Assembly (NCBI GenBank): GCA_041753395.1
Contig: JBGSUQ010000001.1
Coordinates: 221,948 to 285,947 of the forward strand
Length of the DNA stretch: 64,000 nt
DNA from: Spirochaetota bacterium
Lineage (GTDB): Bacteria > Spirochaetota > UBA4802 > UBA5550
Direction of reading: 5' to 3'
Shown piece by piece: positions 3,676 through 28,466 of the stretch (position 1 is the first letter of the stretch; the number at the start of each line of letters is the position of its first letter). Under the pieces are notes generated by a model. It did not search any database and had not been told where the DNA came from. It worked only from the letters and a program-made list of their open reading frames with translations. Made by a program: the position numbers and the translations under genes.

Positions 3676-3772
3676 TTAATCCCCCAATCCTAACAATTCT
3701 TATTTTTTATGATTCTGTTATGGAATATACCATCCAGACGGTTTGTATATACACCATTTGCTTATTCTTTGT

Positions 3773-3990: not shown

Positions 3991-4209
3991 AACAAATTGC
4001 GTAAACAATTTTTATCTTTCCAAGCAAAATGATTGGGGGCCAGAGCAACTGCTTCAGGTGGTACTATTGTATTATTATTCTCACTGAATGTCAAACATAC
4101 AAACAATGATTTTGAAATGTATTGACAAAAACCCATCATTCGCAAATATTTTTAAATTCAGGGTATCCTCATAAGGAAAATAGCCGCATACTGCAGAAAC
4201 GGAGGGTCT

Positions 4210-4545: not shown

Positions 4546-4564
4546 TTGAAAACGCATCATAACA

Positions 4565-6995: not shown

Positions 6996-8222
6996 TTACA
7001 TGCCTTCATTCTCGAGGAGTCTTACTATATCCTTGTAAAATTTCTTGGTGTCAAATCCGGGATGAAAACCCATGAGCTGGTTAACCAGCGTCCAATGATC
7101 GACGCCGACAGTCCCTATGATCGGGATGTATCCCTGGAGGTGCTCCATAAAGCGCCATGATCCATATTGTTCGCCACTTCCCGGGACCCACTCGGCGCTC
7201 TGCCTCGGCACAACTCCGTCATTGGGGTTCTTTCCATTGTATTTCGGGTCACTGTTGACGATGGCCCACAACGGCAGTATGATCAGGGCATTCAGGTTGG
7301 GCGCCGCTCCGGGGACAGTAGCCGAATAAGTGTAGACCTTGATATGAGGCGTCTTGCGGCCGATTTTATCGATGAGGGGATTGAAGGTATCGCGCATATA
7401 TGGCTCGCTGCAATCATTCGTGGCAGCGGTGAAATCATTGCCTACCTGGCCGGCAAGGAGTCCCGCCCAGATATTTTCAAACACCCATTTCGCAATCGCG
7501 TCAATCGGTTTTGTTTCAATGGCCCACTGGGCAATGTAGGTGCCGTTATTCGGCGTGCTTATCATTACTATGGATGCGACAAAACGGGAAGCGGGAATGA
7601 GGGGCGCCGTGCAGGCATCGTCATACCGCGGGTCCGCAATGCTGAGGACTTTCACCATATAGCGGGCATTGATGCCGCCCTGGGAATGGCACAGGAGGTT
7701 GAACTTCAGGTCTGACATATCCACATCCCGTGGAGCTATCCCCTTTGCCGTCGCTATTTCCCGGACCTTTTTGTACAGCAGCGTGTACAGCTCGTCCCTG
7801 AGTTCTGCCGCTCGGACATGGTGTGTTGTAAAACAATTAAGGTCGGCTACGTAGGTTTCCCGGCCGGCATCGGTCAGGGCGCTCTTGAGCTGCCAGAAGT
7901 AATCAATGACATTTATGAATTTTTCAGTGCCGGCCCAGCCGGGGACAAGGATTACCGGATAACGCATATCCTTAACCACGATATTCTCTGTTTCAGGAAT
8001 AACAATAGCTCCGTCAAGAGGACTAACCGGCCAGTCGGTATTATCATTATCGCCAGAAGACCCATCGATAGATGGACCACCGGTATTTCCGGTATCAACT
8101 GTTTCAGCTGATCCGGCGGCAAACATATTCATAAGTGATGATTTTTCGTCATTAGAATCACAAGCGAGAAAAAAACAGAGGCAAATACAGTAAATTGAAA
8201 GGATAACCAGTTTGCGCATCAT
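6996..8222 (-). CDS. Secreted triacylglycerol lipase (alpha/beta hydrolase, lipase family I-like) lipoprotein
   Basis: 408 aa. The N-terminus has a signal peptide plus lipobox (FFLAC). VILVPGWAG is the oxyanion region. LLCHSQGGINARYM gives the GHSQG nucleophile elbow typical of Pseudomonas/Burkholderia-type lipases. An AGGAGAAAT SD precedes it. Confidence 0.75.
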   Translation of the reverse strand: MMRKLVILSIYCICLCFFLACDSNDEKSSLMNMFAAGSAETVDTGNTGGPSIDGSSGDNDNTDWPVSPLDGAIVIPETENIVVKDMRYPVILVPGWAGTEKFINVIDYFWQLKSALTDAGRETYVADLNCFTTHHVRAAELRDELYTLLYKKVREIATAKGIAPRDVDMSDLKFNLLCHSQGGINARYMVKVLSIADPRYDDACTAPLIPASRFVASIVMISTPNNGTYIAQWAIETKPIDAIAKWVFENIWAGLLAGQVGNDFTAATNDCSEPYMRDTFNPLIDKIGRKTPHIKVYTYSATVPGAAPNLNALIILPLWAIVNSDPKYNGKNPNDGVVPRQSAEWVPGSGEQYGSWRFMEHLQGYIPIIGTVGVDHWTLVNQLMGFHPGFDTKKFYKDIVRLLENEGM

Positions 8223-8386
8223 TGGATTTCTCCTACATCTAAGTATGATAATGGTAAAACCAACCAGACGGCTTTATTGTTTATAGGCTGAATATACACA
8301 AATTCAAGAATGATTGTCTCGCCATAATTAGATTAATACTGAAAATGGCTTTTACCGATTGGGGGAAAGAACTTCAGAACTACCAT

Positions 8387-13069: not shown

Positions 13070-13374
13070 CCAGGATGGTATAAATGTATACGAATATCTG
13101 TATGATAATAATTCAATAAAAATATGATATGCTGATAAAATTTACCTGTTCGCCTAAACAAAAAAAGCACTATTGTGCACTATAGCACAGGTCCCATGAC
13201 AAATAGCGTCATAGTCAGAATTTAATGATAAACTGCCCTGAAAAAATTCATGTGTAGTTTTACTCTGAAATATCTATAAGAAAATAATACTTGATTTTTA
13301 TAATAATTCCAGCAGATACCAACACATTCAAGGATCTCTTTATCAAAGAACCATCTTTAAAAAAGGAGGCCACC

Positions 13375-14070
13375 ATGCCAGCATATTTCGAGTTATATAA
13401 GGATAATAAGGGTGAATACCGGTTCCGACTGAAAGCCACGAACGGAGAAGTCATAGCCGTAAGCGAAGGATACTCGTCTAAGCAGAACTGCCTTAACGGT
13501 ATAGATTCGGTAAAGTTTCACGCCTCGACCGCGACAATCGTTGAATTTAATCCGGACAAGGATCTCCTGAAAGCCTGCGACGACGGCAATCTTGAAGGGG
13601 CGAAAAAGGCCCTTGCCCAGGGAGCCAATCCCAACGCTGTTGATTCCGAGGGAGAGCCGGCACTGGTGGAGGCCGCGGAATCGGGCAACCTGGACCTGGT
13701 CAAACTGATGATAAAGAACAAGGCCAATGTCAATCTGGCCGATCTACATGGCGAGACACCCCTCCACGAAGCCAGCGAGGAAGGGCATGACGCTGTCGTT
13801 CATCTGCTTATTAAGGCCGGAGCCAAACTGGATGCGAAGGACAACAATGGGAATACCCCCCTGCTCAAGGCGCTGCTGCACAACAAGATAAAGGCGGCCC
13901 TTGTCCTTGTCAGGGCCGGGGCTAAACTGAACCTGATAAATAATGATGGCATAAACCCGCAGCTGCTGGCCAGGGATAAAGGGATTGATCTGGCGGTGAA
14001 AAGCGCTCCCGCAAAAAAAGCGGTAAAAAATATTGCAAAGAAAGCGGTAAAGAAAAAAAAGAAAAAATGA
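13375..14070 (+). CDS. YegP/DUF1508 domain - ankyrin repeat fusion protein with a poly-lysine C-terminal tail
   Basis: The start is at MPAYFELYKDNKGEYRFRLKATNGEVIAVSEGY (DUF1508 / UPF0339 signature), with an AGGAGG SD. About four ankyrin repeats follow (GETPLHEASEEGHDAVVHLLIKAGAKLDAKDNNGNTPLLKA). The tail is AKKAVKNIAKKAVKKKKKK. Confidence 0.75.
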   Translation: MPAYFELYKDNKGEYRFRLKATNGEVIAVSEGYSSKQNCLNGIDSVKFHASTATIVEFNPDKDLLKACDDGNLEGAKKALAQGANPNAVDSEGEPALVEAAESGNLDLVKLMIKNKANVNLADLHGETPLHEASEEGHDAVVHLLIKAGAKLDAKDNNGNTPLLKALLHNKIKAALVLVRAGAKLNLINNDGINPQLLARDKGIDLAVKSAPAKKAVKNIAKKAVKKKKKK

Positions 14071-14804: not shown

Positions 14805-16166
14805 TCATTGCATATGCCTGGCGACATATGTTCGGATTCCCTTATAATAGGCCGCCGCAACTGTTTTAACCCGTTCCGGCACTATACCTTCACTTATCAC
14901 TACCAGCTCGCGCGCTTCGCGTAAATTATTCTGCTGGAGGGGCTCCCCCAGGCAGAGGGTGCCGCGCACCAGCCGGGTCATACGAAAATTGCGGGCATAG
15001 ACACCCTTCCGGCAGAAGCTGACTTTCTTACCGCCGGGCAGCGGCATATCAGCCGGCGGCAGATCAAGCATCTTCCTGAAGTTCTCAATAACATAAAACG
15101 AATACCTGATTGAGTTCTTCAGATCCGGCGAAATAACGAGGCGCAGAAACTCGACGCGAGACTCCATGTTGTCAAGCTCGCCGCGGACAAAGCAGCCCGG
15201 CACGAAAACCGTGGAGAAGTCCCGGTCAGTTTCCGCGATGGACTGCATGACCTCCCGGTAATCCGTCATCATGGCCCCGCGGGAGCCATAGTTTTTTGTT
15301 AGTATTTCCAGGACCCGTCCGTACTTCTCGCGGTATCCGCCGTACGCACCGCTCGCATCGTAGTGTACAAGCACCGTTATGTCAGGATGGAAGGCATTTA
15401 TGAGCTTCGCCCGGTACGGCATGTCATATTCGCTGTTGAAAAATTTGTGGCGCCGCTTATCGCCGGCATACGAAAGGAGCATGGCCGCCTCGCTGTCGGT
15501 GATGAATTTCTCGCGCCGTTTTTCCAGCACCGAGCGCCGGAAATTTCGCGGCGCCCAGTTGTCGAAGGGGACCGGATACACCTGCCGATTGGCATTTCTG
15601 GTGAGCATAACCATGGCGCCGTCTTTTTCAAGCAGGTCCTTCAGGGTCATGGCCGTGGCCAGGTTGAGCCGCGATTCATGGAACTTGAGGCGCCGTCCGT
15701 CCTTGTCGAAAATCCACATGTACTTGCTCTCGCGGATAGCCTCATCCATGGACCCAGCGCTATGGCCAGGGTCAATGGCGACGCGCAGGCCCTCAAGAGG
15801 CAGTGGGGTTCCCGGTTTATAGCGGAACCTGTTTTCCTCCATGGCCCTGATGCTGTCGGCAAATTCAGCGGTAAATGGCGCCGCCCCCTTGGACCGGTAT
15901 GCTTCCCGTATCTCGGCATCATCAAGGACCCGGAATATTTTGATAAAAACATCATATTCGTTTTTATAGACCCTGCATTCTATCTTACCTGACTGCTTGT
16001 CTTCCGGCGACGCGTACATGGTCACCGAATCAGATTCGATAGAATAATAGCCCTTAAGGGAATCATCACCGACGAGAAGGTTAACACGGTTCTTCATCGT
16101 ATCGCAACCGCTTGCGAAGAACAGCGTCAATGTGAATAATAGCAACCTATGGTTTTTTATGTGCAT
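14805..16166 (-). CDS. Lipoprotein, N-acetylmuramoyl-L-alanine amidase (Amidase_3)-like
   Basis: 453 aa. Lipobox FFASGC. VAIDPGHSAGSMDEAIRESKY...LNLATAMTLKDLLEKDGAMVMLTR resembles the Amidase_3 catalytic segment. A GGGGTG SD precedes it. Confidence 0.5.
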   Translation of the reverse strand: MHIKNHRLLLFTLTLFFASGCDTMKNRVNLLVGDDSLKGYYSIESDSVTMYASPEDKQSGKIECRVYKNEYDVFIKIFRVLDDAEIREAYRSKGAAPFTAEFADSIRAMEENRFRYKPGTPLPLEGLRVAIDPGHSAGSMDEAIRESKYMWIFDKDGRRLKFHESRLNLATAMTLKDLLEKDGAMVMLTRNANRQVYPVPFDNWAPRNFRRSVLEKRREKFITDSEAAMLLSYAGDKRRHKFFNSEYDMPYRAKLINAFHPDITVLVHYDASGAYGGYREKYGRVLEILTKNYGSRGAMMTDYREVMQSIAETDRDFSTVFVPGCFVRGELDNMESRVEFLRLVISPDLKNSIRYSFYVIENFRKMLDLPPADMPLPGGKKVSFCRKGVYARNFRMTRLVRGTLCLGEPLQQNNLREARELVVISEGIVPERVKTVAAAYYKGIRTYVARHMQ

Positions 16167-16219
16167 TATAGCACCCCATTTCCATTCATATTATAATACT
16201 ACTGTTGCATAACTAATAG

Positions 16220-16325
16220 ACTTGTTGCGAAACTGCGTCTCGCGCTCGCAGGGAAGCCCCTGCGGGGGGCTTTTAAGGGGCTTAGCCTCTTAACCCCGAC
16301 AAAAAGAAATAGATACGCAACAAGT
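16220..16325. repeat. Small structured repeat, family C copy 1: core ttttaaggggcttagcctcttaacccc flanked by a 10-bp inverted repeat (acttgttgcg / cgcaacaagt)
   Basis: The core is nearly identical to 62832-62858 (ttttaaggggcttcgccccttaacccc). A GC hairpin (gcccctgcggggggc) is adjacent. It lies in a divergent intergenic region. Confidence 0.55.
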
Positions 16326-16535
16326 TTAATGATAATTTCATATGATCCCGCCGCTTTCGGCTACGGTGGTGCATATCATTTATTATTGAGTAATGTATTA
16401 ATGCTTACCACTTTTTTTAAATTACTTTTTTGCAATACTGACAAAATCTTCTTGATTTAATTATAAAACATGATCATATTTTAATAACGGTCTGCCTGTT
16501 GAGGCTGTAATCATCCATAATTGGAGAACTCTATA

Positions 16536-16754
16536 ATGGAAAAAATATGGAATGTTATTTTACCGAATTTAATAGGCTTTTGCCTGATGATTGCTGGCTG
16601 GTATCTCAGCATCGTCGATGTCGGTGTGAGGACCCGCATTACAACGTACAAGGAAATCGAATATATTACTTTCCTGACCATCATAGGACTGGCAATGATC
16701 CTGATAGGGGCCTATCTCCCCCGCCTATGGCGCAAAATCCGCGGGAATAAATAG
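16536..16754 (+). CDS. Small two-TM membrane protein
   Basis: 72 aa from ATG 16536 (MEKIWNVILPNLIGFCLMIAGWYL...), with a GGAGAA SD 8 nt upstream. The ORF track starts at TTG 16521. Confidence 0.4.
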   Translation: MEKIWNVILPNLIGFCLMIAGWYLSIVDVGVRTRITTYKEIEYITFLTIIGLAMILIGAYLPRLWRKIRGNK

Positions 16755-17070
16755 CTGCTCACTATTTCTCATTATCTACTATATTAAAATCCGCACTCAT
16801 GCAGGTTCTTACCGGAATGATCAAGGGTTTGCCCAGGGAAGATATTCGTTTGATTATGCAATAACATTATTAATGGGAAAATTATTCCATGTGAATATGT
16901 TTTTTGTACACAATCGACAAATATTCGTAGATTGAAACAAATCATAGATAAATAATCACACCGATAGCAATCAGTAATAAATTTTACTCTGACCCCTCAC
17001 AATTTAATCTTTATGATTATTCTATAAATCTATACAAAATCATGATTTACTGCATCTTTCAACTGGCCAG

Positions 17071-17115
17071 AAACAGATTAATCTGTTTTTGACCTGTCAA
17101 AAAACTGACTGGTCA
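17071..17115. promoter_or_regulatory. Operator-like palindromes in the AT-rich leader of the island: an 18-bp perfect palindrome (AAACAGATTAATCTGTTT) followed by two TGACnnGTCA palindromes (TGACCTGTCA-N6-TGACTGGTCA)
   Basis: Read directly from the sequence. They sit inside a 620 bp, roughly 30% GC, ORF-free region (16755-17379) upstream of the PaaK-like gene. A TTGATA-N17-TATTAC candidate promoter lies at 17273-17301. Confidence 0.45.
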
Positions 17116-17379
17116 GTATCCAACTTTATAGCATTTTTTTAAAATTTGGACAATTTTTGATATATCAGACTATGGCGAGACAATAAGAAATTATTAAGAT
17201 ATATATTCATTTAAAGAATCCAAACCACTTTATTCAAAGATAATTAACAATTACATAATGTTTTTCAAGAACTTGATAATGTTTATTTGTAAAAATATTA
17301 CTACCGACCGGACGGTTTACTGTTTTAATTTATTAATAATTAAAACACATAAGAATCTTCATGGCTATGGATACAAAAT

Positions 17380-18699
17380 ATGATCAGATTTTTATTATAT
17401 CTGTCAATTGCGGTCATACAAGTTCACCTGAATAATCTCATGTCAGGGGCAGCGCTACGCAAGCGCACTGAACAGAGAATTATCCGCATGATCCGGAAAG
17501 CGTACAAGAATGTGCCCTACTACAAGCAGCTGTATGATGATTGGGGGGTTAAGATAGACGAAATAAGGACACTAGATGATTTAAAAAAACTGCCCTTTAT
17601 AACCAAGGACGAAATCCGCGAGCATTTCCCCGCGGACATTGTATCATCAAAATACAACGTTGAGGATTGCCATTATTCAGCCACGACCGGATCCACCGGC
17701 AGGTCGCTCCCCTTTGTTTTCAACAATTCCGCCTATGCTTTTTATATAGCAACCGGTATGCGCATGTATACCATGATCGGTTACCGGCCATGGCACAAGA
17801 TGGTATACATCAAGTACACAGCTATCAGTTATCCGCGTATCGGTCCATTTTTCAGAACCGAGCACATACCATCCACCATCCCTGCCGCTGAACAGATAGC
17901 CAAGCTGCGGAGTATGAAACCCGATCTGCTCCTCGGTTACGCGTCCATTATTTTCGAAATCGCACAGAAAGCGACCTCTGACGACCTGAAGCATATCAGG
18001 CCGAAATTCATCGGCATCAACTCTGAGCTCTCAACAAAGGACCAGCGCGAATTCATATCATCGGTTTTCGGGTGCCCGGTATATGACGAATACTCAACCG
18101 AGGAAACCTGGATGATAGCTTCCCAGTGCAAGCACGGGAACTACCATCTGTTCATCGACAACGTTTGGGTCGAATTTCTCGATAAGAGCGGGAACAGCGT
18201 GAAGCCTGGTCAAGAAGGAGAAATCGTTCTAACAACATCGCGGAGTGATGCAATGCCCTTTATCCGTTACCGTATCGGCGATATCGGACGCTATAGCAAC
18301 ACAACGTGCGCCTGCGGTCTCGGCTATCCACTGCTCGAGGCCTTTGACGGAAGGGCCGATGATTCCTTCATACTGCCCAGCGGCAAATACATTTCATCCC
18401 TGAAAATTTTAAACACCTTCACCAGGTATATTAAGAAATACCTCCATCTGATGGAAGAATTCAAAATTATCCAGAAAGACAGAGGATATGTCGTCATCGA
18501 GCTCGTCAAGGGTAGGGAATACAGCGACCGCCATTTCAAGGAGCTGACAGATAGCCTGCACGAGATATTCGGCGAACCCGTGACCATCAGCGTGGTACCC
18601 GTAGATCATATATCCTTGAACAACAGCATAAAACGCAAAGCCATTGAGTCCCGGGTGACCGTTAAAGACAAAGAACCGGCCCTTACATCAGCCATGTAA
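17380..18699 (+). CDS. Adenylate-forming enzyme, PaaK / CapK / coenzyme F390 synthetase family (ANL superfamily)
   Basis: 439 aa. The N-terminus (LRKRTEQRIIRMIRKAYKNVPYYKQLYDDWGV...LKKLPFITKDEIREHFP) matches the PaaK/F390-synthetase N-terminal domain. SATTGSTGRSLPF is the P-loop, YDEYSTEE resembles the A5 motif, and RYRIGD is the A8-like motif. An alternative start is at 17440. Confidence 0.7.
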   Translation: MIRFLLYLSIAVIQVHLNNLMSGAALRKRTEQRIIRMIRKAYKNVPYYKQLYDDWGVKIDEIRTLDDLKKLPFITKDEIREHFPADIVSSKYNVEDCHYSATTGSTGRSLPFVFNNSAYAFYIATGMRMYTMIGYRPWHKMVYIKYTAISYPRIGPFFRTEHIPSTIPAAEQIAKLRSMKPDLLLGYASIIFEIAQKATSDDLKHIRPKFIGINSELSTKDQREFISSVFGCPVYDEYSTEETWMIASQCKHGNYHLFIDNVWVEFLDKSGNSVKPGQEGEIVLTTSRSDAMPFIRYRIGDIGRYSNTTCACGLGYPLLEAFDGRADDSFILPSGKYISSLKILNTFTRYIKKYLHLMEEFKIIQKDRGYVVIELVKGREYSDRHFKELTDSLHEIFGEPVTISVVPVDHISLNNSIKRKAIESRVTVKDKEPALTSAM

Positions 18700-18743
18700 A
18701 GGCATATATCATTGATCCAAGTTAAACGGAGGACAGAAAAATA

Positions 18744-20219
18744 ATGTTTAAGTCAAGAGTGGTTTCATTAGCATTAGTGGCAATCATAATAGGTCTCGTT
18801 TATACCGATGGGTATCCCTGCGATGTAGCGGTCGTCTCGGCCCGCGTTTCCACGACGGGAAGGCCCTTTATATGGAAAAACAGGGACTGCTCTGCCAGCT
18901 GGCACCAGGAGATTAAATACTTCAATGCGGTCACCGAAAAGGCAGGCGCCTATATCATGGTTATCGGCTTTGACGATGTGGCTGAATTGAACAACGGCAC
19001 CCCGGTCAATCCGTCAGGCGGAGTTAACGAGGCTGGCTTTGCCATATCGTGTACATCGGTTTATGAAGAGTTTAATCCGCTCCATGAGTTGTTCAACATC
19101 AATACCGACCTGATACGGCACGCTCTTCAAGAGTGCGCCACCCTTGAGGATTTCGATGCACTGCTCAAGCGCTTTAAATACGAGCATTTCGGCAAGATCA
19201 TCAGCGGCAACTTCGTCGCCATTGACGCCAGGGGGGGAGCGGCTCTCTATGAATGCTTTACCGGAAACCTTTTCGGTATCCTCCGTCCGGTCATGTTCCG
19301 GAAATACAACGCAAACAACGGCAGGGTCACGGAATATAACGGTATTTACACCTACACCAGGAATCAGGGCAATGGAGACAAGTTCATAGGCTTTGTCAAC
19401 CGGGCCAATGCGAACACATACATTCCATGGAATTACGGCGAAGAGCGCCGCTGGAGAGCCCAGGATATATTGACCCAGCTGGCATCCTCGGGAAGGCTTA
19501 ATTACCGGAACTGCATGACGGAAGTGGCCAAGGACATCTACGGCAAGCAGGTTGACGGATACGGGAACGAGGTCGACCAGGCCAGCCGACAGGAGAACTA
19601 CAGCTCAACCTACTGCATCAGCCGTGCAGCGACCCGGCTTGGCATGGTGGTTGACGGTGTTGCCCCCGGTGAAGATCCCCGCCTGAGCACCTTCTGGTGT
19701 GTCCTGGGTGAACCATCCACCGGCGTTTTCATCCCCTACTATGCGTACGCGGGAGAGGTCTCATGGCTCGCCTGGATCGACGGCATTGATATCGACGGAA
19801 CCCAGTACGACATGACAGACGCATCAATGCTTGCACGGGCGGCCAACCGGCGCGAGATCTACGAGAACCTCATATACGATTCAAACAACGGCGACGCCCT
19901 GTGGGGAATGGAAGACAAAACCATGAACAAGACCGAGCTCATGAAGGTGCAGAATTGGACTGGTCCGATCGAGGATTTCATCTTCCAGAAAAACGAGGAA
20001 CTGCTCGCCGACATGGCCATCAACCCTTCTTATCTAACACCGCAGAATTTGAGGGATTTTTCCCACTACTGTGCCGCATACGTGTACAGCAATTATAACG
20101 AGGAATCGGCTGAAAAATATGCCTGGACCTTTACCAAGCCATGGAACCCGGCCTGGGTCGGCTACACCAGGGGCGGATTCCAGAATGACGGGCTGACCTC
20201 CGTAGCTCCCGGATTGTAG
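18744..20219 (+). CDS. Secreted protein, putative N-terminal-nucleophile (Ntn)-type hydrolase (Cys directly after the signal peptide; choloylglycine hydrolase- or peptidase C45-like)
   Basis: 491 aa with a signal peptide MFKSRVVSLALVAIIIGLVYTDGYP|CDVAVV. The Cys is followed by a beta-strand-like segment and GRPFIWKNRD, resembling the Cys...R..D arrangement of linear-amide C-N hydrolases. A GGAGGA SD precedes it. The family assignment is tentative. Confidence 0.45.
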   Translation: MFKSRVVSLALVAIIIGLVYTDGYPCDVAVVSARVSTTGRPFIWKNRDCSASWHQEIKYFNAVTEKAGAYIMVIGFDDVAELNNGTPVNPSGGVNEAGFAISCTSVYEEFNPLHELFNINTDLIRHALQECATLEDFDALLKRFKYEHFGKIISGNFVAIDARGGAALYECFTGNLFGILRPVMFRKYNANNGRVTEYNGIYTYTRNQGNGDKFIGFVNRANANTYIPWNYGEERRWRAQDILTQLASSGRLNYRNCMTEVAKDIYGKQVDGYGNEVDQASRQENYSSTYCISRAATRLGMVVDGVAPGEDPRLSTFWCVLGEPSTGVFIPYYAYAGEVSWLAWIDGIDIDGTQYDMTDASMLARAANRREIYENLIYDSNNGDALWGMEDKTMNKTELMKVQNWTGPIEDFIFQKNEELLADMAINPSYLTPQNLRDFSHYCAAYVYSNYNEESAEKYAWTFTKPWNPAWVGYTRGGFQNDGLTSVAPGL

Positions 20220-20302
20220 GTGGGCAGCGGCCAGAATTTAAGCCTTGCAAGCGGCATTGTCAAATTCTTCGGCAGGTAAGAACGATTAATAGACAGGTAC
20301 AG

Positions 20303-21367
20303 ATGATTCCAGCATTAAAATTCAACCATGATGACCGTCCTGAAAACAGCGTGGCCGGCACAGTGAACCGGCAGGCGCCCGAATCGGGGACCATGCCATC
20401 GGGCGGCCCGGTGAAGCAGTTTGCGAAGAGGATGATCCCGTGGCTCGTCGGCGGCGCCATTCTGGCGTACCTGGTATGGCGGATAGAGGTCACGCCCCTG
20501 CTTGAGGCGCTTACCCACGCGGACGTGCCCCTGTACATGCCGGTTCTCACCGCCTTCATCCTGGTGAATTTTTTCGCCGATACGCAGAACCTGAACGCCC
20601 TCCTGAAATATGCAAGGAGCCCCATTCCTTTCCGCGACAGCATGATCATACGTGGCGCTTCATACCTGCTGATGATCATAGACTACACGCTGGGAATGGG
20701 CAGTATCGTCTATTACCTTAAGAAATACATGAATGTGCCAATTGCTCGCGGGACTGGATCAATGCTCTTCCTGAACTATATCACCCACGTGTCCCTTCTG
20801 ATACTGGCGATCGCAGGATGCCTGATGGCTGCCGCTTCAGGAGCGCTTTCAATGCTGCTGGCAAACATCGCTCTTACCTTCACTGTGCTGCTGGCCCTTG
20901 CCATTATCGCCATACTACTCATGAAAATGCTCCCGGACTGGTCTTTCCTGAAGAAAATCAAGCATAGCGAGCTGATGCAAATCTTCATCGAAAGCCCGTT
21001 GAGCGTCTATCTCATGAACACGCTCTATCGGTGCGGCTTCTATTTCACCTTCATCCTGTTCTTTTATATCGCGGTCAAGGCCTTCAACATGGACATACCA
21101 TTTTTCGAAATGACCGCCTATGTCCCGGTCATACTGCTGGTGATCAGCATTCCCATATCGGCCTTCGGCCTGGGAACGTCACAGGCGGCAATGCTTATCC
21201 TGTTTAAAGATTATGGTTCACCGGCCCAGATACTGGCCTTCAGCCTTACCTACTCGGCTTCCATAATCATTTTCAGGGGCATAATCGGCGCCTGTTATTA
21301 TGGCATTATCACAAAACGAGTTACATATAAATACAAAGCAAATTTGTTGAGAGGAGAAGTCTCATGA
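20303..21367 (+). CDS. Polytopic membrane protein, PF03706-like (lysylphosphatidylglycerol-synthase TM / UPF0104 flippase-like family)
   Basis: 354 aa with about 8 predicted TM helices. The YYLKKY motif is shared with the PF03706-like protein at 53113..54141. The start is uncertain, with alternative ATGs at 20393 and later. Confidence 0.5.
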   Translation: MIPALKFNHDDRPENSVAGTVNRQAPESGTMPSGGPVKQFAKRMIPWLVGGAILAYLVWRIEVTPLLEALTHADVPLYMPVLTAFILVNFFADTQNLNALLKYARSPIPFRDSMIIRGASYLLMIIDYTLGMGSIVYYLKKYMNVPIARGTGSMLFLNYITHVSLLILAIAGCLMAAASGALSMLLANIALTFTVLLALAIIAILLMKMLPDWSFLKKIKHSELMQIFIESPLSVYLMNTLYRCGFYFTFILFFYIAVKAFNMDIPFFEMTAYVPVILLVISIPISAFGLGTSQAAMLILFKDYGSPAQILAFSLTYSASIIIFRGIIGACYYGIITKRVTYKYKANLLRGEVS

Positions 21368-22455
21368 AAAAAATCTGGTTAATGTCGATTGTCGCATGTA
21401 TCCTTTCTCTCCTGGCTTTCGGATGCAACAAGGCCGAAACGGAAGATATAATCACGGAAATAGCAAAGAAAAATTCAAAAGCGCCGACCAACAACGGCGC
21501 CAACAATGAAGGTTACGGCACCATTATCCCCGGTGAAGAGAACGGTAACGGAAACGGCACTGGAACCGAACCTCCCGCTGCTGACAGCATACGGCTGGTA
21601 TTTGCCGGCGACACCATACTGTCCGGCAAAGTCAAAGATGTCGTGATCAGCAACGGAAACGGTAACTACCAGTACCTATTCCAATATGCCGGTGATTATC
21701 TGCGGAACGCGGACCTTGCCTTTATAAACCTTGAAAGCATCATTACCAGCGAAGGAACCTCAGAGAACAACTCCGCCTTAAGGGCCGATCCGGCCGCGGT
21801 CAACGGATTGACATACGCCGGAATCGATGTTGTATCAGTCGCCAATGACCATGCCTTTGATTACGGCAGGACTGGTTTTGACAGCAGCCTGCAAAACATG
21901 AAAAATGCCGGGATTTCATGCATCGGCGGCGGGACCTTTGAGGAGTCCTATACCGCTAAAATAATCGATGTCAAGGGGACCAGGGTGGCCTTCCTCGCCT
22001 TTACCAACCTGGGGAATGAATATAGCGTCAGGGCCCAGCAGAATGACCCGTCCCAGGGTTTGAGCGCGAGAACGGGCGTTGCGTGGTACTACATGAAATA
22101 TGTCGGCCCTGCCATCATCAGCGCTAAAAAACAGGCTGATATCGTTATCGTGTCTCTTCATATGGGCAAAGCGGGAGAGAAGCTTCCGAATCTGTCCCAG
22201 GATAAGCGTGCCCACTACTGCGTGGACCAAGGTGCAAGCCTTGTGATCGGCCATCATCCCCAGGTCATCCAGCCGGTAATGGTCTACATCAAGGGGCATA
22301 TCGCGTATTCGCTAGGGAACTTCATCACCGACCAGGAGGGATTTGATGCGAAAAAGGGGATCATTCTGGAAGTCGTGGTCAGCAACAAACAGATCGCGAA
22401 AATCAACCGGAAATACGTTTATATCAACAGCAACTATCAGCCGGTGGTACAGTAG
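21364..22455 (+). CDS. CapA-family protein (metallophosphatase-fold protein of the poly-gamma-glutamate-capsule CapA/PgsA family), lipoprotein
   Basis: 363 aa. Lipobox LLAFGC. LVFAGDTILSG, VVSVANDHAFDYG and SLVIGHHPQVIQP match the CapA / PGA_cap motifs. The ATGA overlap and a GGAGAAG SD indicate coupling with the upstream gene. Confidence 0.7.
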   Translation: MKKIWLMSIVACILSLLAFGCNKAETEDIITEIAKKNSKAPTNNGANNEGYGTIIPGEENGNGNGTGTEPPAADSIRLVFAGDTILSGKVKDVVISNGNGNYQYLFQYAGDYLRNADLAFINLESIITSEGTSENNSALRADPAAVNGLTYAGIDVVSVANDHAFDYGRTGFDSSLQNMKNAGISCIGGGTFEESYTAKIIDVKGTRVAFLAFTNLGNEYSVRAQQNDPSQGLSARTGVAWYYMKYVGPAIISAKKQADIVIVSLHMGKAGEKLPNLSQDKRAHYCVDQGASLVIGHHPQVIQPVMVYIKGHIAYSLGNFITDQEGFDAKKGIILEVVVSNKQIAKINRKYVYINSNYQPVVQ

Positions 22456-22460
22456 TAATC

Positions 22461-23627
22461 ATGACAGGGTCCGGGATCAATAAGAGAATGAAAGAGAAAA
22501 CAGCAGCGGGAAAACTCCAGGACAAGCTGGCTGATCTGATACCGCTCCGGCACTTTATTGTAACCGGATATACCCGAAACGGACTCTTTCTTCTAATCAA
22601 GGCCATGGGTTGGGAACGCAGCGCCGAGATCATCGTCCCGGCCTTTACCTGCCCGGTAATCAGGCACACCATCGCCGAAGCCGGGCCTGTCCCGGTCCCG
22701 GTTGATGCCGAAGACAACGGAATAAATATCGACCCTGACAAAATAAACCCTTCGATCACCGGCAACACAAAAGCCATATATGTGGTACACACCTATGGAA
22801 TGATCGCACAAATTGAAAAGATATGCGCGATAGCGAAAAAGCATAACCTGATGGTCATCGAGGACCTTGCGCATGCCCCCTTCTCGCTCTACAGGGACAG
22901 ACAGCTCGGGACTTATGGAGATATCGCGCTGTTAAGTTTTACGAAAAAATTGGTCAATTTCGAAGGCGGCGCCATCGGGACCAATGATGCGGCATTATAC
23001 GCAAAAATGGTGATGCTGCAAAAGGAGTATGAACGCAAGCGTTCATACTCGCTCAATTCTTTCATCGAAATATTTGTCCGTCTGGTCGGTTCATGGTGGG
23101 AGAGCAGCTTTTCCTTTATAGCGCTGTTAATAATGAAACTGAATGATGCCATAAACACGCTTGTGTACAAAGGATCCTACGGCATGTCAATTGACAGCGC
23201 GGCTTTTACCGCAAGCGAGAAAGGATGCCGCATAACATTGCGCCAGATCGACCGTCTCTTCAATACATACCGCGGGTATAACGGCCATTACCTGGAACAT
23301 GCCGCCGCGGCATCGGACATCCTTATCTGCAAGCCGTACCAGAACAGTAATGACACCCTGCCTTTCTATATCACGGGCATTCCGGCCGGCAGGAACAGGC
23401 TGTACCGGCTACTGTCATTTAGAACATGGCACAACAGCAACAAGCCGGGTTCGTACCCCCGCGCGGATTACCTGTATGAACATTACAGAATATTCTCAAG
23501 AGCAGTACGGCGGTTTCTTCCGGAGCGGAAGGGCGGCATAATCCGTTTAATACAGAAGCATGATTCCGTATCACAAAAAAAGAATATGAAACAACCAACC
23601 TTATCAAGCAAAAGAGGGATCATATGA
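22461..23627 (+). CDS. DegT/DnrJ/EryC1/StrS (ArnB-like) PLP-dependent aminotransferase
   Basis: 388 aa. IIVPAFTCPVI...TKAIYVVHTYGMIAQIEKICAIAKKHNLMVIEDLAHA...YGDIALLSFTKKLVNFEGGAIGTND aligns motif for motif with the DegT family, including the PLP-lysine region. Confidence 0.8.
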   Translation: MTGSGINKRMKEKTAAGKLQDKLADLIPLRHFIVTGYTRNGLFLLIKAMGWERSAEIIVPAFTCPVIRHTIAEAGPVPVPVDAEDNGINIDPDKINPSITGNTKAIYVVHTYGMIAQIEKICAIAKKHNLMVIEDLAHAPFSLYRDRQLGTYGDIALLSFTKKLVNFEGGAIGTNDAALYAKMVMLQKEYERKRSYSLNSFIEIFVRLVGSWWESSFSFIALLIMKLNDAINTLVYKGSYGMSIDSAAFTASEKGCRITLRQIDRLFNTYRGYNGHYLEHAAAASDILICKPYQNSNDTLPFYITGIPAGRNRLYRLLSFRTWHNSNKPGSYPRADYLYEHYRIFSRAVRRFLPERKGGIIRLIQKHDSVSQKKNMKQPTLSSKRGII

Positions 23628-24667
23628 AACTCGTACAAGAAGCTATTGCCAGAACAGTTGAAAGAGATGAAAATATCCAGGTGGCCATTACCTGCCGGGA
23701 TAATTTCCTCGTTGAGCACCAAGGATTCAATTATTATCTGATTGACCTCAAGAACTCCGATTACTCGATTCTCGACGAGATCATCAGCGGGTGCGAGGCC
23801 GTTGAGAACGACACATGGAAAGCGCAAGAAGATTTTTTTGATTACATCAAGAAGAGCGATATCCTGGTCTATGCCGAAAAGAATGGGCGGATTGTCGGAT
23901 TCAACCTTGTCTCCCTGCTCCTCATCAACGAATACTGCTTCTACACGGTGGATGAAGCAATGGTCCTCAGGGCGTTTCAGGGCAACAACATCGCCCGCAA
24001 TATCGTTTCAGCCACGCTATGGTGGTTCCTGAAAATAATCGACCTGGACAAAGCGGTTAAAAAATGCGTCTTTGTATCAATTTCCAGCAATCCCAGGGTC
24101 GTAAATAATTATTTCAAGAATAAATATATCACGCGGACCATGGACAACTCCTTTTATCCATCCGAGAACCTGATAGCCGTGCACCGCGCCTATCTTGCCA
24201 AAAACAATTTTGAGCTTGTTGACACCAGTTACCCCTTCTGCGTGAAAAACCTCTTCCCCGGATCTCAGCAGCTTGACTGGACCAATAAGAAATATCAATT
24301 CCTTGATGAAGTGAAAAAACTGATGCCAGGTGAATTTGAGCATACAAAGCGCGGGGACGCCTGGGCATTCATGGTCGTTCCCAGCAAGCGTCTGTCTTAT
24401 TTCGCGATACGGGCCACCGTGCTTGCCTTTTTCGGAACGAAGTCCCTGCTGCATAAAAAAATCGGCCTCCTCAGGAACAAGAAGAACCTGGAGACAAGGC
24501 CCGAGCTGACGAGAATCAGGCTCATTGACGGCAAGTTTTTTGACGTTCACAATAATGAAAGGCGGAGGACCGAACGCAGGGTTCTTAATAGCGGATGTGA
24601 CGTGACGGGGATAGACCGGCGGATTACCGATAGGAGATTATCCCTTCAGGCAGATTGCGGGAAATGA
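23624..24667 (+). CDS. Hypothetical protein with an N-terminal GNAT-like acyltransferase fold and an Arg-rich C-terminus
   Basis: 347 aa, overlapping the upstream gene by ATGA. ILVYAEKNGRIVGFNLVSLL...RAFQGNNIARNIVSA resembles GNAT motif A. The C-terminal ~50 aa (RRRTERRVLNSGCDVTGIDRRITDRR) are highly basic. Confidence 0.4.
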   Translation: MKLVQEAIARTVERDENIQVAITCRDNFLVEHQGFNYYLIDLKNSDYSILDEIISGCEAVENDTWKAQEDFFDYIKKSDILVYAEKNGRIVGFNLVSLLLINEYCFYTVDEAMVLRAFQGNNIARNIVSATLWWFLKIIDLDKAVKKCVFVSISSNPRVVNNYFKNKYITRTMDNSFYPSENLIAVHRAYLAKNNFELVDTSYPFCVKNLFPGSQQLDWTNKKYQFLDEVKKLMPGEFEHTKRGDAWAFMVVPSKRLSYFAIRATVLAFFGTKSLLHKKIGLLRNKKNLETRPELTRIRLIDGKFFDVHNNERRRTERRVLNSGCDVTGIDRRITDRRLSLQADCGK

Positions 24668-24734
24668 CGGTTGCCGTGTCAATCTTCACACGCGTATATT
24701 GCGCAGTAACTTTATCGATCACTGATTCCAGAGG

Positions 24735-25973
24735 TTGACTTTGACCGCCAGATTGCAGAACATTTGGGACAAACCCTATTCCCGGGTTCTTTCAGTAAAT
24801 GAACGTCTGTGGCTTGCGGCCGATACTATGAACCCTCCTTTCGCGATACAGATGATTTGCGAGGGCTGCGGAACTATCGATACCCGGGAATGGCGGAAAG
24901 CCGTTGAACTGGCCAGCGCAGCAAATCCGGGAAGCCGCTTGAGGCTGAAGGGCCTGCTCACTTCATGCCGATGGGTTGATTCCGAAACAGCGCCACCGGT
25001 ACTGGAAGTCGACGGTAGTGCATGGTCCGGTTACAGCCCCGAAGGCGCCCCCTTCCTGGAAAAACCATTTAATGTCGTCGACGGCCCCACCTGTGAAGTG
25101 CTCATCATCCACGGAAATCCCATCCGTATCGCCTTCCGGGCTCATCACGCCGTCATGGACAATCACGGCATCATATTCTGGGCCGAAGAGATATTCCGGG
25201 CCCTCCAGGGCAAGCCGCTGCGCGGGTCCTATTCCCGAGCGACGGACTGGGACGTGGCAAGATCGTTCCAGTCCGGATACCGCAAGCCCTTTCCGCACGA
25301 TAACCTCTCCATCACCGGGAAGGCTGAAGGCATTGAGTCGGGAACCGTGTGGGGACGCAGGAGCGTCCCCGGGCATTTCCAGAAGCTGCTTGCCCAGGTG
25401 GCGTACCATACGGCACAGGAGGCCCGCCGCCATGGAGAGGGAAATGTGCGCTTTGCCATCCCCATCGACCTCAGGTCACGCATCCAGGGGCTGCAGTCAA
25501 CGGGGAACCTCTCCATCGGCATCTATATTGATGTGAGGCCCGATACCACAATAGATGAAATCGGCTGGGACATCGCCTGGCAGCTCAGGGAAAAACGAGA
25601 CTGTATGATCGACCGGTGGGATTTCCTTTACCGGTATATCCCGATCAGCATCCTCGGACAGGAAGGCACAAGAAGAATTATTGATCACCATAGCAAAGGC
25701 CTTTACAGCATGTCAGGCCTAATAAGCAACGCCGGCAGGCTCAATACAAAGCATTTCTCCGGCGGCGGCTTTGAATGCGGTTCCATATTCGCAATCCCGC
25801 CGTATTTCTCATATCTCCCGCTGCTGCTATGGCTTTACGGAACCGGTGATTCCGTTGAGCTGGTCTATGCCGCGCCGCGGGTCCTGGCGACACAGGGCAG
25901 GCTCGACGCCGCCATTGACCGAATTGTCTCGGCATTAATGCCCGCCAGCTACATGCCGGTCTATCGTGCCTGA
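24735..25973 (+). CDS. Stand-alone condensation-domain-like acyltransferase (HHxxxDG superfamily: NRPS C-domain / WS-DGAT / PapA-like), paralog 1 of 4
   Basis: 412 aa; TTG start (alternative TTG at 24741 after GAGG). PPFAIQMICEGCGTIDTREWRKAVELASAANPGSRLRLKG...NPIRIAFRAHHAVMDNHG. The HHxxxD motif sits near residue 137, as in condensation-type acyltransferases. It is about 45-55% identical to the next three ORFs. Confidence 0.7.
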   Translation: MTLTARLQNIWDKPYSRVLSVNERLWLAADTMNPPFAIQMICEGCGTIDTREWRKAVELASAANPGSRLRLKGLLTSCRWVDSETAPPVLEVDGSAWSGYSPEGAPFLEKPFNVVDGPTCEVLIIHGNPIRIAFRAHHAVMDNHGIIFWAEEIFRALQGKPLRGSYSRATDWDVARSFQSGYRKPFPHDNLSITGKAEGIESGTVWGRRSVPGHFQKLLAQVAYHTAQEARRHGEGNVRFAIPIDLRSRIQGLQSTGNLSIGIYIDVRPDTTIDEIGWDIAWQLREKRDCMIDRWDFLYRYIPISILGQEGTRRIIDHHSKGLYSMSGLISNAGRLNTKHFSGGGFECGSIFAIPPYFSYLPLLLWLYGTGDSVELVYAAPRVLATQGRLDAAIDRIVSALMPASYMPVYRA

Positions 25974-25985
25974 AAAGGAATAATC

Positions 25986-27200
25986 ATGCGCAGGCATAGC
26001 CCAGATGATCCCTCCCCGGTCAGGCCCCTCTCAATAGCTTCACGGTTATGGGTCGCCGCCAATACGATCACACCGCCCTTCGCGAACCAGGTCATAGTGG
26101 AAGGCACCGGGTACTTCAACGCCGATGAATGGCGTACGGCCGTCCGCATAGCGTCGGAAGCAAACCCGGGCGCCAGACTTGTCCTGAAGGGGTGTCTCGG
26201 ATCAAGCCGATGGATCGATACAGGGACCACGCCGCCAATCAGGGAAGTTGACGGCTCCTCATGGGACGGGCTGGGATCGGATGGTGCGCCCTTCCTCAAG
26301 CAGGATTTCAATCCACGAAAAGGACCCAACAGCGAGGTACTGCTGATGCACGGAAACCCGGCCCGGGCCGCCTTCCGGAGCCACCACGCAGTCATGGATG
26401 GCAGGGGAACCATGACCTGGACGGAAGACATTTTCCGGGTCCTCCGCGGCGAGAAACCGCTCGGCTCTGAATACGCCATGATTGAAAACAACCTCCTGAA
26501 TCTGAGCCGGGGGAAAAGGAGCAAGCCGCTGCCTCACCAGTATATCGGCCCGACAGGGAAAGCCGACGGAACCGAAATAGACCTTGCTTGGAAGAGGGTA
26601 ACGCTCATCGGCAAATATCCCCGTCTTCTCGCGCGGGTGCTGTTCCTCACGGCCCGGGAGGCGTGGCGCCATGGCGACGGCAAGGTCAGGATCGGCATTC
26701 CCGTCGATCTCCGTTCCCGCCGCGAAGGCCTCCGTTCCACCAGCAATCTCACAAACGCTATTTATATAGACATTGACCGGAAAGCGACTGTTGACGGGAT
26801 AGCAGATGATATCGCACGGCGTCTTTCAATTCGTGCGGACGGCGAAATCACCTGGGAGGACCTCATCATCAGCTATGTGCCGGTCAATATCCTTGCCAGG
26901 GCCATCAGGAACGAAGGGAGAGGCAACCAGAGATCGGGCCGTTTTCGCTTCTCCGGTTTCGTCTCAAACCTGGGCCGCCTGGACAGTGCCGCCTATTCAT
27001 GCGGTAGCTTCTCCGCGAGCGCGTATTTCGGGGTCCCCGTGTGCGCTCCCATCCTTCCCTTCAGCATGACCCTGTCCGGCCTTGGCGGCAGGATAGAGAT
27101 GCTCCTCATGATGCCCCGCAACATGGCAACCGGCGGCAGGCTTGATGCCGCCCTCGGCAGGATCGCGGACGGTCTCTCACAGACCGACATACGCCAATAA
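25986..27200 (+). CDS. Stand-alone condensation-domain-like acyltransferase, paralog 2 of 4
   Basis: 404 aa with an AAAGGAA SD. PPFANQVIVEGTGYFNADEWRTAVRIASEANPGARLVLKG...AAFRSHHAVMDGRG. Confidence 0.7.
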   Translation: MRRHSPDDPSPVRPLSIASRLWVAANTITPPFANQVIVEGTGYFNADEWRTAVRIASEANPGARLVLKGCLGSSRWIDTGTTPPIREVDGSSWDGLGSDGAPFLKQDFNPRKGPNSEVLLMHGNPARAAFRSHHAVMDGRGTMTWTEDIFRVLRGEKPLGSEYAMIENNLLNLSRGKRSKPLPHQYIGPTGKADGTEIDLAWKRVTLIGKYPRLLARVLFLTAREAWRHGDGKVRIGIPVDLRSRREGLRSTSNLTNAIYIDIDRKATVDGIADDIARRLSIRADGEITWEDLIISYVPVNILARAIRNEGRGNQRSGRFRFSGFVSNLGRLDSAAYSCGSFSASAYFGVPVCAPILPFSMTLSGLGGRIEMLLMMPRNMATGGRLDAALGRIADGLSQTDIRQ

Positions 27201-27204
27201 AAGC

Positions 27205-27233
27205 TTGACAATAGGTTTTTTGAATAATTATAT
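27205..27233 (+). promoter_or_regulatory. Near-consensus sigma-70 promoter (TTGACA-N17-TTATAT) in a short AT-rich island between paralogs 2 and 3
   Basis: aagcTTGACAataggttttttgaataaTTATATatttag. The -35 box is a perfect TTGACA with a 17-bp spacer, 20 nt upstream of ATG 27254. The surrounding DNA is about 60% GC. Confidence 0.5.
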
Positions 27234-27253
27234 ATTTAGATATCAGACTCAAC

Positions 27254-28432: not shown

Positions 28433-28466
28433 AACCTATCAGCCGCGGTATACATACAATTCCGAC

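Follow-up and report, generated by a model that had tools for sequence, protein, structure and literature searches.

The window analyzed here is a 64,000-nucleotide (nt) stretch of a Spirochaetota bacterium (assembly GCA_041753395.1, contig JBGSUQ010000001.1, positions 221,948 to 285,947), and our subject is the leader interval at 16755-17379, which is bounded on one side by the gene for a small membrane protein (16521-16754, +) and on the other by a 439-codon gene starting at 17380. The latter gene (17380-18699, +) encodes an adenylate-forming ligase of the CapK_C/PaaK/F390-synthetase type and is the first of a ten-gene operon (17380-29654, +). The GC content of the leader is 28.5%, compared with 50.0% for the window and 52.8% for the operon. 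The leader is the most AT-rich 625-nt segment of the window, and other intergenic regions of the window are likewise AT-rich. A first-pass annotation made from the letters alone had recognized the AT-richness of the leader (about 30% GC) and had set the window mean slightly too high, at 52%.

To place the interval in context, we relied on approximately 16 distinct syntenic loci from uncultured Spirochaetota, collected from genome, metagenome, and assembly look-ups; the metagenome scan contributed only one new orthologue. The nearest genome records were metagenome-assembled genomes (MAGs) labelled Spirochaetota, Spirochaetes, or Leptospirales. When the region was searched against the E. coli genome, nothing matched, which indicates that the source is not an enterobacterium. 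In these syntenic loci, the ligase is 71 to 86% identical to that of the window and is preceded by an AT-rich gap of 500 to 700 bp; the low GC content of the gap is retained in all of them. The upstream neighbors are also shared and comprise a DinB_2 gene, a divergent Amidase_3 gene, and the gene for a membrane protein of 68 to 77 residues.

Conservation was mapped on an alignment of nine close loci, for which identities were calculated block by block. The leader consisted of islands with 76 to 93% identity amid spacers with 32 to 47% identity. The ligase gene provided the scale for neutral divergence, with a proportion of synonymous differences (pS) of 0.58 and a ratio of nonsynonymous to synonymous proportions (pN/pS) of 0.165. 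On this scale, the spacers between the islands appear to be otherwise neutral, which supports a regulatory role for the islands. Six islands were lettered A to F in the order in which they occur, and a GC-rich dyad lies further downstream. In the distant syntenic loci (L006 to L009 and L024 to L026), blocks C, D, and E are missing, and blocks A and B, the core of block F, and the GC dyad persist. None of these motifs was found in the ligase homologues of other phyla that we inspected (L010, L011, L027, and L028).

Block F (17144-17207, +) holds the promoter module P1, which stands out by both its conservation and its recurrence. Its box, ATC-N6-TGGCGAGACA-N17-TATATA, spans 17164-17207: the ATC (17164-17166) is followed after 6 nt by TGGCGAGACA (17173-17182), which ends in a -35-like GAGACA (17177-17182), and then, across a 17-nt spacer, by the putative -10 hexamer TATATA (17200-17205). 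The block as a whole reads ..TTGATAyATCAGAC-wATG-GCGAGACAAT-N..-TATATATATT. In the nine close loci, 46 of its 64 positions are invariant and the mean identity is 90%. The box was present in every close orthologue and in most distant ones. In the distant loci L006 to L008 and L024, just ATCAGAC, GC(C/T)AGAC, and TATATA were kept, with fixed spacing and a variable spacer sequence. Conserved hexamers 16 to 18 nt apart, separated by a varying spacer as in sigma-70-type promoters, were thus found in these four loci and in all of the close ones. Fixed boxes over a variable spacer are the signature of a promoter, here predicted to consist of (G/C)AGACA, 16 to 18 nt, and TATAT(A/T), with an adjacent factor site. 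The assignment of P1 as a promoter, including its start position, is a prediction from sequence.

The module is not confined to the leader. The pattern GC.AGAC-N15-20-TATATA occurs twice in the window as opposed to 0.02 expected occurrences, and looser patterns occur three times as opposed to 0.04 to 0.1. A profile search returned the same three copies, in the CapK leader (that is, the interval under study), at the promoter of an amidohydrolase gene, and at the promoter of a lipase-like gene. All three are in the sense orientation and upstream of a gene, and their consensus is WATC-N6-TGGC(G/C)AGACA-N16-19-TATAT(A/T). The second copy, together with its dyad, occupies 3729-3788 (-; box at 3788-3746) before the amidohydrolase gene (2056-3675, -) and reads ATC-N6-TGGCCAGACA-N19-TATATA followed after 3 nt by the dyad ACCGTCTGGATGGT (3742-3729). 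The third lies at 8259-8333 (-; box at 8333-8291) before a lipoprotein lipase-like gene (6996-8222, -); it reads ATC-N6-TGGCGAGACA-N16-TATATT, with the TATATT at 8296-8291, and is followed after 18 nt by the dyad GCCGTCTGGTTGGT (8272-8259). A 13-mer, ATGGCGAGACAAT, is identical between the CapK-leader and lipase copies. Conservation across orthologues was assessed for the CapK-leader and amidohydrolase copies, and the latter was kept in four of four orthologous loci (L029 to L031 and the window). The shared module suggests that the CapK-like operon, the amidohydrolase-creatininase genes, and the lipase-like gene form a common regulon.

Several further observations concern these promoters and their surroundings. 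The lipoprotein lipase-like gene adjoins a lipase-chaperone gene (5909-6886). The 890-bp gap at 3676-4564 contains two direct repeats of about 45 nt, at 3943-3990 and 3772-3815 (in the minus-strand sense, GCCAAAA..GAT..ATCT.AACTTGGCCAG), the distal one being a partial duplicate of the promoter box without its -10 (nhmmer E = 0.03). Where the window has this gap, the orthologous loci carry a rubredoxin-like gene (RUBY_RBDX) of 64 to 65 residues, which the window does not have. In L006, L008, and L024, an extra 70 to 150 nt separate the promoter box from the dyad, and this segment (about -190 to -150 from the ligase ATG) includes AAACAnATTGACA(A/G)G, a conserved sequence in which TTGACA is perfect; it may be a second promoter that is absent from the clade of the window. 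Finally, the window encodes a 6S (SsrS) RNA (63193-63368, +; 81.6 bits) with a promoter-like TTGATA-N17/18-TATAAG just upstream, from which it appears that the organism uses ordinary sigma-70-type promoters.

The GC dyad of the leader, ACCGACCGGACGGT, lies at 17303-17316 (+) and has the consensus ACCG-nCYRGA-CGGT. Of its 14 positions, 12 are symmetric, and in L025 and L026 the site is the perfect palindrome ACCGTCCGGACGGT. Each of the 16 distinct loci has exactly one copy, always on the sense strand and 45 to 84 nt before the ligase ATG. The dyad thus behaves as an operator might: its symmetry is kept in orthologues, and it recurs, again in the sense orientation, at the amidohydrolase and lipase promoters, where it follows the -10 hexamer. 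The amidohydrolase copy is identical in all four orthologues. A near-copy with one mismatch, TACCGACTGGCCGGTT, lies at 8025-8040 (-) within the lipase-like coding sequence, about 180 nt past its start, and may be due to chance.

In the leader, the dyad is embedded in an upstream open reading frame (uORF), where it covers the codons T-D-R-T-V. The synonymous positions of three of the dyad codons (ACC, ACG, and GTT) never vary, which indicates a nucleotide-level constraint on top of the coding constraint. The uORF itself (17258-17383, +) has 41 codons, MFFKNLIMFICKNITTDRTVYCFNLLIIKTHKNLHGYGYKI, and its TGA stop (17381-17383) overlaps the ATG of the CapK-like gene (17380-17382) in an ATGA. The interval had been described as free of open reading frames; this frame, which starts with an ATG and is conserved with a coding type of substitution, contradicts that description. 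A second, 53-codon frame on the minus strand (16784-16945) runs through sequence without conservation and is probably spurious.

The uORF was intact in nine of nine close loci, with a conserved ATG and a length of 37 to 42 codons. Its stop overlaps the ligase start as ATGA in seven of these loci and lies 2 to 6 nt before the ATG in L021 and L023. The indels (3 and 12 nt) are all in frame. The pN/pS of the uORF is 0.40, or 0.29 without the dyad codons, as opposed to 1.1 to 1.2 in the other two frames, and variable columns number 19, 18, and 25 of 36 at the first, second, and third codon positions, respectively. The C-terminus of the peptide, NLHGYGYK(I/V), is its most conserved part. Three database entries call the uORF as a gene. 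A search of 5.8 billion proteins with a profile of the peptide alignment returned only three hits, each of them from this clade. The more distant orthologues lack the frame or have a different one: L007 retains only a 14-codon version, MKILMGLHGKGYEI; the dyad of L007, L009, and L026 lies in no frame, there being no start codon over it; in L006, L008, and L024 the dyad lies in unrelated short frames, and in L025 it lies in a 7-codon frame. Since the dyad persists where the uORF does not, the dyad is the older element.

The strength of the ligase Shine-Dalgarno sequence varied with the presence of the uORF. Where the uORF reaches the ATG, the sequence is weak (UGGAU or UGGGU); strong sequences (AAGGA, GAGG, or AGGG) were found only in orthologues without a frame reaching the ATG. 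The pairing of the stop-start overlap with a weak Shine-Dalgarno sequence supports coupling by termination and reinitiation. In this respect, the leader resembles known coupled uORFs and leader peptides with an ATGA, in which the stop of a short frame overlaps the start of the first structural gene. It differs from them in the moderate conservation of the peptide sequence and in the operator-like dyad that the frame contains; no arrest motif was established.

Could the uORF be untranslated and owe its apparent conservation to DNA or RNA elements that overlap it, namely, the ribosome-binding region, the dyad, and a hairpin formed by GAAGAUUC/GAAUCUUC? Such an explanation would account for the lack of a Shine-Dalgarno sequence before the uORF, the freezing of the dyad codons at the nucleotide level, the ability of part of the conserved C-terminal coding region to form a hairpin in several relatives, and the loss of the frame from distant orthologues. 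It is at odds with the pattern of substitution, because outside the dyad synonymous sites changed at a neutral rate (pS of 0.71; the range for the uORF, 0.53 to 0.71, is comparable to the value for the ligase gene) and pN was only 0.21. Nor does it explain why every indel is a multiple of three or why the frame stays open in nine of nine AT-rich sequences when the alternative frames contain one to four stops. Moreover, the hairpin is missing from the window, L004, L005, and L022, which keep the frame nonetheless. We therefore regard an untranslated uORF as unlikely. The GAAGAUUC/GAAUCUUC hairpin, as well as a hairpin that would sequester the start codon (AAGAAUCU.. with ..AGAUUUUU), occurred in some relatives only, and both were set aside as elements of the leader.

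The product of the uORF might also matter in its own right, as a functional small protein or as a peptide that serves the pathway as substrate or scaffold. The adenylate-forming ligase, the PGA_cap/MslH-like protein, or the condensation-like enzymes could, for instance, modify its conserved C-terminus, LHGYGYKI. The ligase gene is followed on the same strand by genes for a C45/AAT-like protein, a membrane protein with an LPG_synthase_TM domain, a PGA_cap protein, a DegT aminotransferase, a possible GNAT-like protein, and four tandem paralogues. The PGA_cap protein (21364-22455, +) has a weak NCBIfam match to MslH, the epimerase of the C-terminal tryptophan of a lasso peptide, at 64 bits as opposed to a cutoff of 700. 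The four paralogues (24735-29654, +), 392 to 412 codons long and 42 to 47% identical to each other, belong to no Pfam or NCBIfam family, with only sub-threshold hits to Condensation and WS_DGAT_cat; near residue 130 they carry HHA(V/L/I)MD(G), which corresponds to the HHxxxDG motif of condensation and WS-DGAT/CAT-fold acyltransferases. A role of this kind would fit with the purifying selection on the residues of the uORF, chiefly the C-terminal NLHGYGYKI, with the resemblance of the PGA_cap protein to an enzyme that epimerizes a C-terminal peptide residue, and with the HHAxMDG motif of the condensation-like paralogues. It fits poorly with a peptide family limited to one clade and with operons that encode the same enzymes without the peptide or with unrelated short frames (L006, L008, L009, L024 to L026, and the homologues in other phyla), and the MslH match falls far below its cutoff. 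In particular, a precursor of the kind used for ribosomally synthesized and post-translationally modified peptides was rejected because the enzymes are conserved without the peptide in L006 to L009, L024 to L027, and other phyla. We consider a role for the peptide beyond coupling very improbable.

The remaining islands lie upstream of P1. Block A (16904-16918), TTGTACACAATCGAC, in the form TTGTAyACAATCGAC, is half of a palindromic site. Relatives have ATTGTATACAAT at this position, and L008 has the full 20-bp palindrome GTCGATTGTATACAATCGAC. The block has a mean identity of 79% across the nine close loci, as opposed to 32% for the spacers around it, and it was also found in L006, L008, and L025; the window contains no further copy. 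Block B (16960-16975), ACCGATAGCAATCAGT, is a degenerate copy of the consensus palindrome ACCGATAACTATCGGT, which is perfect in L003 and L021. Its ACCGATAAC is kept in nine of nine close loci as well as in L006 and L008 and is unique within the window. Block C (16983-16996, +), TTTACTCTGACCCC, is restricted to the close clade and has a mean identity of 84% among the nine loci.

Block D (17068-17091), CAGAAACAGATTAATCTGTTTTTG, includes the 18-bp perfect palindrome AAACAGATTAATCTGTTT at 17071-17088, which had attracted attention in the first-pass annotation and is indeed present. It is the only perfect palindrome of at least 18 bp in the window, as opposed to an average of 0.24 in block shuffles, so that by itself it is only mildly unusual. 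The clade consensus of the block is a 24-bp palindrome, CAAAAACAGATTAATCTGTTTTTG. Its left arm and core, CAnAAnnAGATTAATC, are almost invariant in the close clade (93% identity), and the right arm (77%) is altered or displaced in five of the nine loci (L003, L005, L021, L022, and L023). The block is absent from L006 to L009 and L024 to L026.

The same annotation had pointed to a pair of TGACnnGTCA palindromes further on. Both are there (TGACCTGTCA at 17090-17099 and TGACTGGTCA at 17106-17115), but they are separated by 6 rather than 7 nt. The window holds four copies of TGACNNGTCA, compared with 0.55 expected, and the two beyond the leader lie within genes. The first of the pair is specific to the window; its identity is 62%, and it forms no dyad in relatives. 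The second is part of block E (17101-17123), AAAACTGACTGGTCAGTATCCAA, in which the better-conserved dyad is TGG-N7-CCA. Block E is almost invariant in seven close loci; a 12-nt insertion in L021 and L023 separates TGAC from TGGTCA, and the conserved dyad there is TTGGT-N5-ACCAA instead. Thus, across orthologues, blocks A and B are palindromic in several relatives, the 18-bp palindrome is kept in part and in the close clade only, and the TGACnnGTCA symmetry is not kept. Neither the flagged palindromes nor blocks A and B have a copy at the amidohydrolase or lipase promoter. Blocks D and E are plausible clade-specific protein sites, but they do not form the core of the region, nor do they amount to a TGACnnGTCA operator in repeated copies. 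The most eye-catching palindromes of the leader are not its most conserved elements.

These data bear on the interpretation originally given to the interval, which was seen as a leader without reading frames, silenced by a nucleoid protein and placed before a horizontally acquired island, with AAACAGATTAATCTGTTT and two TGACnnGTCA operators and with a TTGATA-N17-TATTAC promoter at 17273-17301. That interpretation draws on an AT-richness that is extreme for the window, on the retention of the 18-bp palindrome and the second TGACnnGTCA in the closest relatives, and on ligase homologues 60 to 70% identical in other phyla, which suggest an ancient horizontal spread of the cluster. The ligase is unusually conserved across phyla: homologues with 59 to 72% identity occur in Smithella, Bacillota, Ignavibacteriales, Solirubrobacterales, and a Halobacteriota MAG, and they point to the horizontal spread of a cluster core consisting of the ligase, the LPG_synthase_TM protein, the DegT protein, and a 347-residue protein. 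The operon exists in two variants, one of which includes the C45-like and PGA_cap genes and the other of which lacks them.

Recent acquisition is contradicted by the flanking genes and leader architecture common to approximately 16 Spirochaetota loci and by the GC content of the operon, which is close to the window mean; such conserved synteny indicates that the locus is not a recent arrival. The sequence proposed as a promoter does exist at 17273-17301, but it lies inside the conserved, coding-type uORF, and its -35 is not conserved: TTGATA reads TCATAC, TTATAA, TAACAA, and so on in relatives, and the better-conserved box of P1 lies about 100 nt upstream. The palindromes fare no better as operators, since the first TGACnnGTCA is unconserved, the second is split by the 12 nt in L021 and L023, the palindrome block is absent from more distant syntenic orthologues in which both the GC dyad and the P1 box persist, and the palindromes are not repeated at the promoters presumed to be coregulated. 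No gene for an H-NS-, MvaT-, Lsr2-, or Rok-type silencer was seen in the 64-kb window, and we know of no H-NS-type silencer in Spirochaetota. The silenced-island model therefore seems largely refuted by the comparative data, and we judge it quite unlikely. What survives of it is the idea of a regulated leader, a long, AT-rich, conserved regulatory region with several dyads resembling protein sites before a multigene operon; the claims that it is ORF-free, silenced, and recently acquired do not. In this sense the first-pass annotation was borne out in part, both in what it observed and in how it interpreted the observations.

The leader was also compared with known regulatory systems. It does not resemble trp- or his-type leaders, as it has no attenuator terminator and no run of regulatory codons. 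No intrinsic terminator was found on the plus strand between 16100 and 17600, and the overlap of the uORF with the gene start leaves no room for one, so that attenuation of this type was rejected. As in regulons with a shared operator, the GC dyad occurs at three promoters of the window, persists in orthologues, and in two of the cases follows the -10 by 3 and 18 nt; the CapK-leader copy departs from this pattern in lying about 100 nt downstream of the promoter and inside a reading frame.

The hem-box of Leptospira HemR, TGACA-N6-TGACA, is a site for an OmpR/PhoB-type response regulator that overlaps the -35 (PMC11426443). The CapK leader similarly contains CAGAC-N6-GAGAC, a 5-N6-5 direct repeat with 11-nt phasing that replaces a canonical -35. 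However, the sequence of the repeat differs, the amidohydrolase and lipase promoters have not retained its upstream unit, and matches to the hem-box itself occurred in the window only at chance level. Searches of the literature for the motif strings gave no relevant match except for the operator core of OhrR. The ohrA operator of B. subtilis, an AT-rich palindrome of the MarR/OhrR type, contains ATTGTATACAAT (PMC2651793), which is identical to the 12-bp core within the longer palindrome at block A of relatives. This is a resemblance of strings only; there is no MarR gene nearby, and the copy in the window, TTTGTACACAAT, is imperfect. Finally, JUMPStart/ops (RfaH) leaders and enterobacterial H-NS islands likewise place a long AT-rich stretch before a long operon with capsule-like annotations (here CapK_C, PGA_cap, and DegT). 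They differ from the present locus, which belongs to a spirochaete, is syntenic across its lineage, is not atypical in GC content, and has no ops element in the leader; the only copy of GGCGGTAG in the window, at 49972, is within chance expectation. A literature search on DVU_1553 and CapK_C returned nothing useful.

Other classes of element were tried and rejected. Read by eye as sigma-54 promoters (-24/-12; TGGCAC-N5-TTGCW), TGGC(G/C)AGACA and the dyad showed no conserved GC at the required spacing, and a sigma-28 reading of block B (CCGATAA) found, by inspection, no TAAA at the required spacing. For a riboswitch or other structured RNA, there was no Rfam match at E ≤ 1 over 15500-18500, and the whole window yielded only 6S RNA at the gathering threshold. 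Consensus folds of the leader and of blocks C to E were weak (-11 and -5 kcal/mol), with compensatory changes in 0 of 27 and 2 of 14 predicted pairs, respectively, which is not convincing covariation. Elsewhere in the neighborhood, 13291-14070 (+) encodes a protein in which a DUF1508 domain occurs together with ankyrin repeats, a combination that is unusual for bacteria; a DinB_2 protein follows it.

The conservation map, the recurrence of box and dyad, the coding signature of the uORF, and the correspondence of stop-start overlap with Shine-Dalgarno strength lead us to assign the interval to a biosynthetic operon of ten genes, as its conserved promoter and leader, in a lineage of uncultured Spirochaetota related to Leptospirales. 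We give a probability of roughly 55% to the proposal that it works as a composite control region comprising locus-specific upstream operators, P1 with its shared box, a regulon-type GC dyad, and a uORF whose translation is coupled to that of the first enzyme gene. Transcription would start from P1, through GAGACA and TATATA. The -35 side of P1 would sit in the 19-nt box ATC-N6-TGGC(G/C)AGACA, which is present at at least two other promoters within 14 kb; the box shared by three units implies that one trans-acting factor is probably common to them, be it a dedicated sigma factor or an activator that overlaps the -35. The upstream palindromes, locus specific and with A and B deeply conserved and D and E confined to the close clade, would probably serve as extra operators. 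The mRNA would begin with an A/U-rich leader of about 50 nt followed by the uORF. Ribosomes terminating at the UGA of the AUGA would reinitiate on the ligase gene with its weak Shine-Dalgarno sequence, thereby coupling translation of the first enzyme to that of the uORF. A dimeric repressor would most likely bind the GC dyad as its operator and work either at the start of transcription or as a roadblock. The transcription start, the binding proteins, and the direction of regulation in this scheme are what we infer.

Several points weigh against this scheme. AT-rich DNA supplies many -10-like hexamers, and the -35 with AGACA matches TTGACA at only four of six positions. The uORF lacks a Shine-Dalgarno sequence and is absent or different in distant orthologues, as already noted, and Pfam scans, including those of the rest of the window, found no regulator gene in it. 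In the CapK leader, the dyad lies 97 nt from P1, in some orthologues more than 150 nt, and its distance to the ATG stays within 36 to 84 nt in all three units. With this pattern, a role at the mRNA level or a second, proximal promoter fits as well as a roadblock operator does. In addition, where the stem differs at the amidohydrolase and lipase promoters, the two changes (A to G and C to T) preserve G.U pairing in the sense RNA.

The dyad might therefore act in the mRNA, as a sense hairpin (stem ACCG/CGGU, loop nCYRGA) in three 5' leaders through which an RNA-binding protein or the translating ribosome controls translation or mRNA stability. We hold this to be possible, at considerably less than even odds. 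Beyond the strictly sense orientation, such a role would explain why the distance to the start codon is far steadier than the spacing from the promoter, which varies from 3 to more than 200 nt, and why the stem has changed only from A-U to G.U and from G-C to G.U, so that it pairs in the sense but not in the antisense strand. It would also give meaning to an odd feature of all three leaders, in each of which a frame crosses the dyad in the same phase. In the lipase leader this frame reads GTG-YIQPINNKAVWLVLPLSYLDVGEIQ with a stop overlapping the ATG, and in the amidohydrolase leaders it reads (G/T)TG-YI(Q/K)TVWMV... The start codons of these two frames lie within the presumed -10, and the sequence after the dyad lacks coding-type conservation; their common phase may or may not be due to chance.

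The physical evidence for a hairpin is less favorable. The stem has only 4 bp and a folding energy of -3.6 kcal/mol, no better than that of shuffled sequences (z = 0.2); there is no compensatory double change and no Rfam match. The symmetry of the dyad runs through its center, where C14 and G17, which would be unpairable loop bases in RNA, are invariant and mutually symmetric as in a DNA palindrome, and in L025 and L026 all 14 bp are palindromic. Invariance and symmetry of these two positions favor recognition as DNA. The GC dyad is thus somewhat more likely to be a DNA operator, as in the composite control region proposed above, than an RNA element.

A more far-reaching version of these ideas can be formulated. 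The box ATC-N6-TGGCSAGACA-N17-TATATW and the dyad ACCGnCYRGAYGGT might define an undescribed regulon of the Leptospirales-like lineage in which a short reading frame is threaded in a fixed frame across the dyad (T/A-x-R/W/Q-T/M/L-V), so that translation of the leader is linked to occupancy of the dyad as DNA or RNA; alternatively, the 41-residue GYGYKI peptide might provide the ligase and the condensation-like enzymes with a scaffold. This is a long shot, the least probable of the readings considered here. If true, the linkage between translation and the dyad would be a new type of leader-peptide control.

The kind of feature found at this locus is known, and it is a real but fairly ordinary regulatory region; its motifs and their combination are undescribed for the lineage. 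To our knowledge, nothing is known about gene regulation in these uncultured spirochaetes. The comparison of orthologues yields a predicted promoter box that three transcription units share, a GC dyad as the best candidate for the operator of a regulon, and a small upstream reading frame that is translated, judging by its coding signature, and mostly missed by gene callers. These elements would control an uncharacterized operon whose core genes are found in several phyla.

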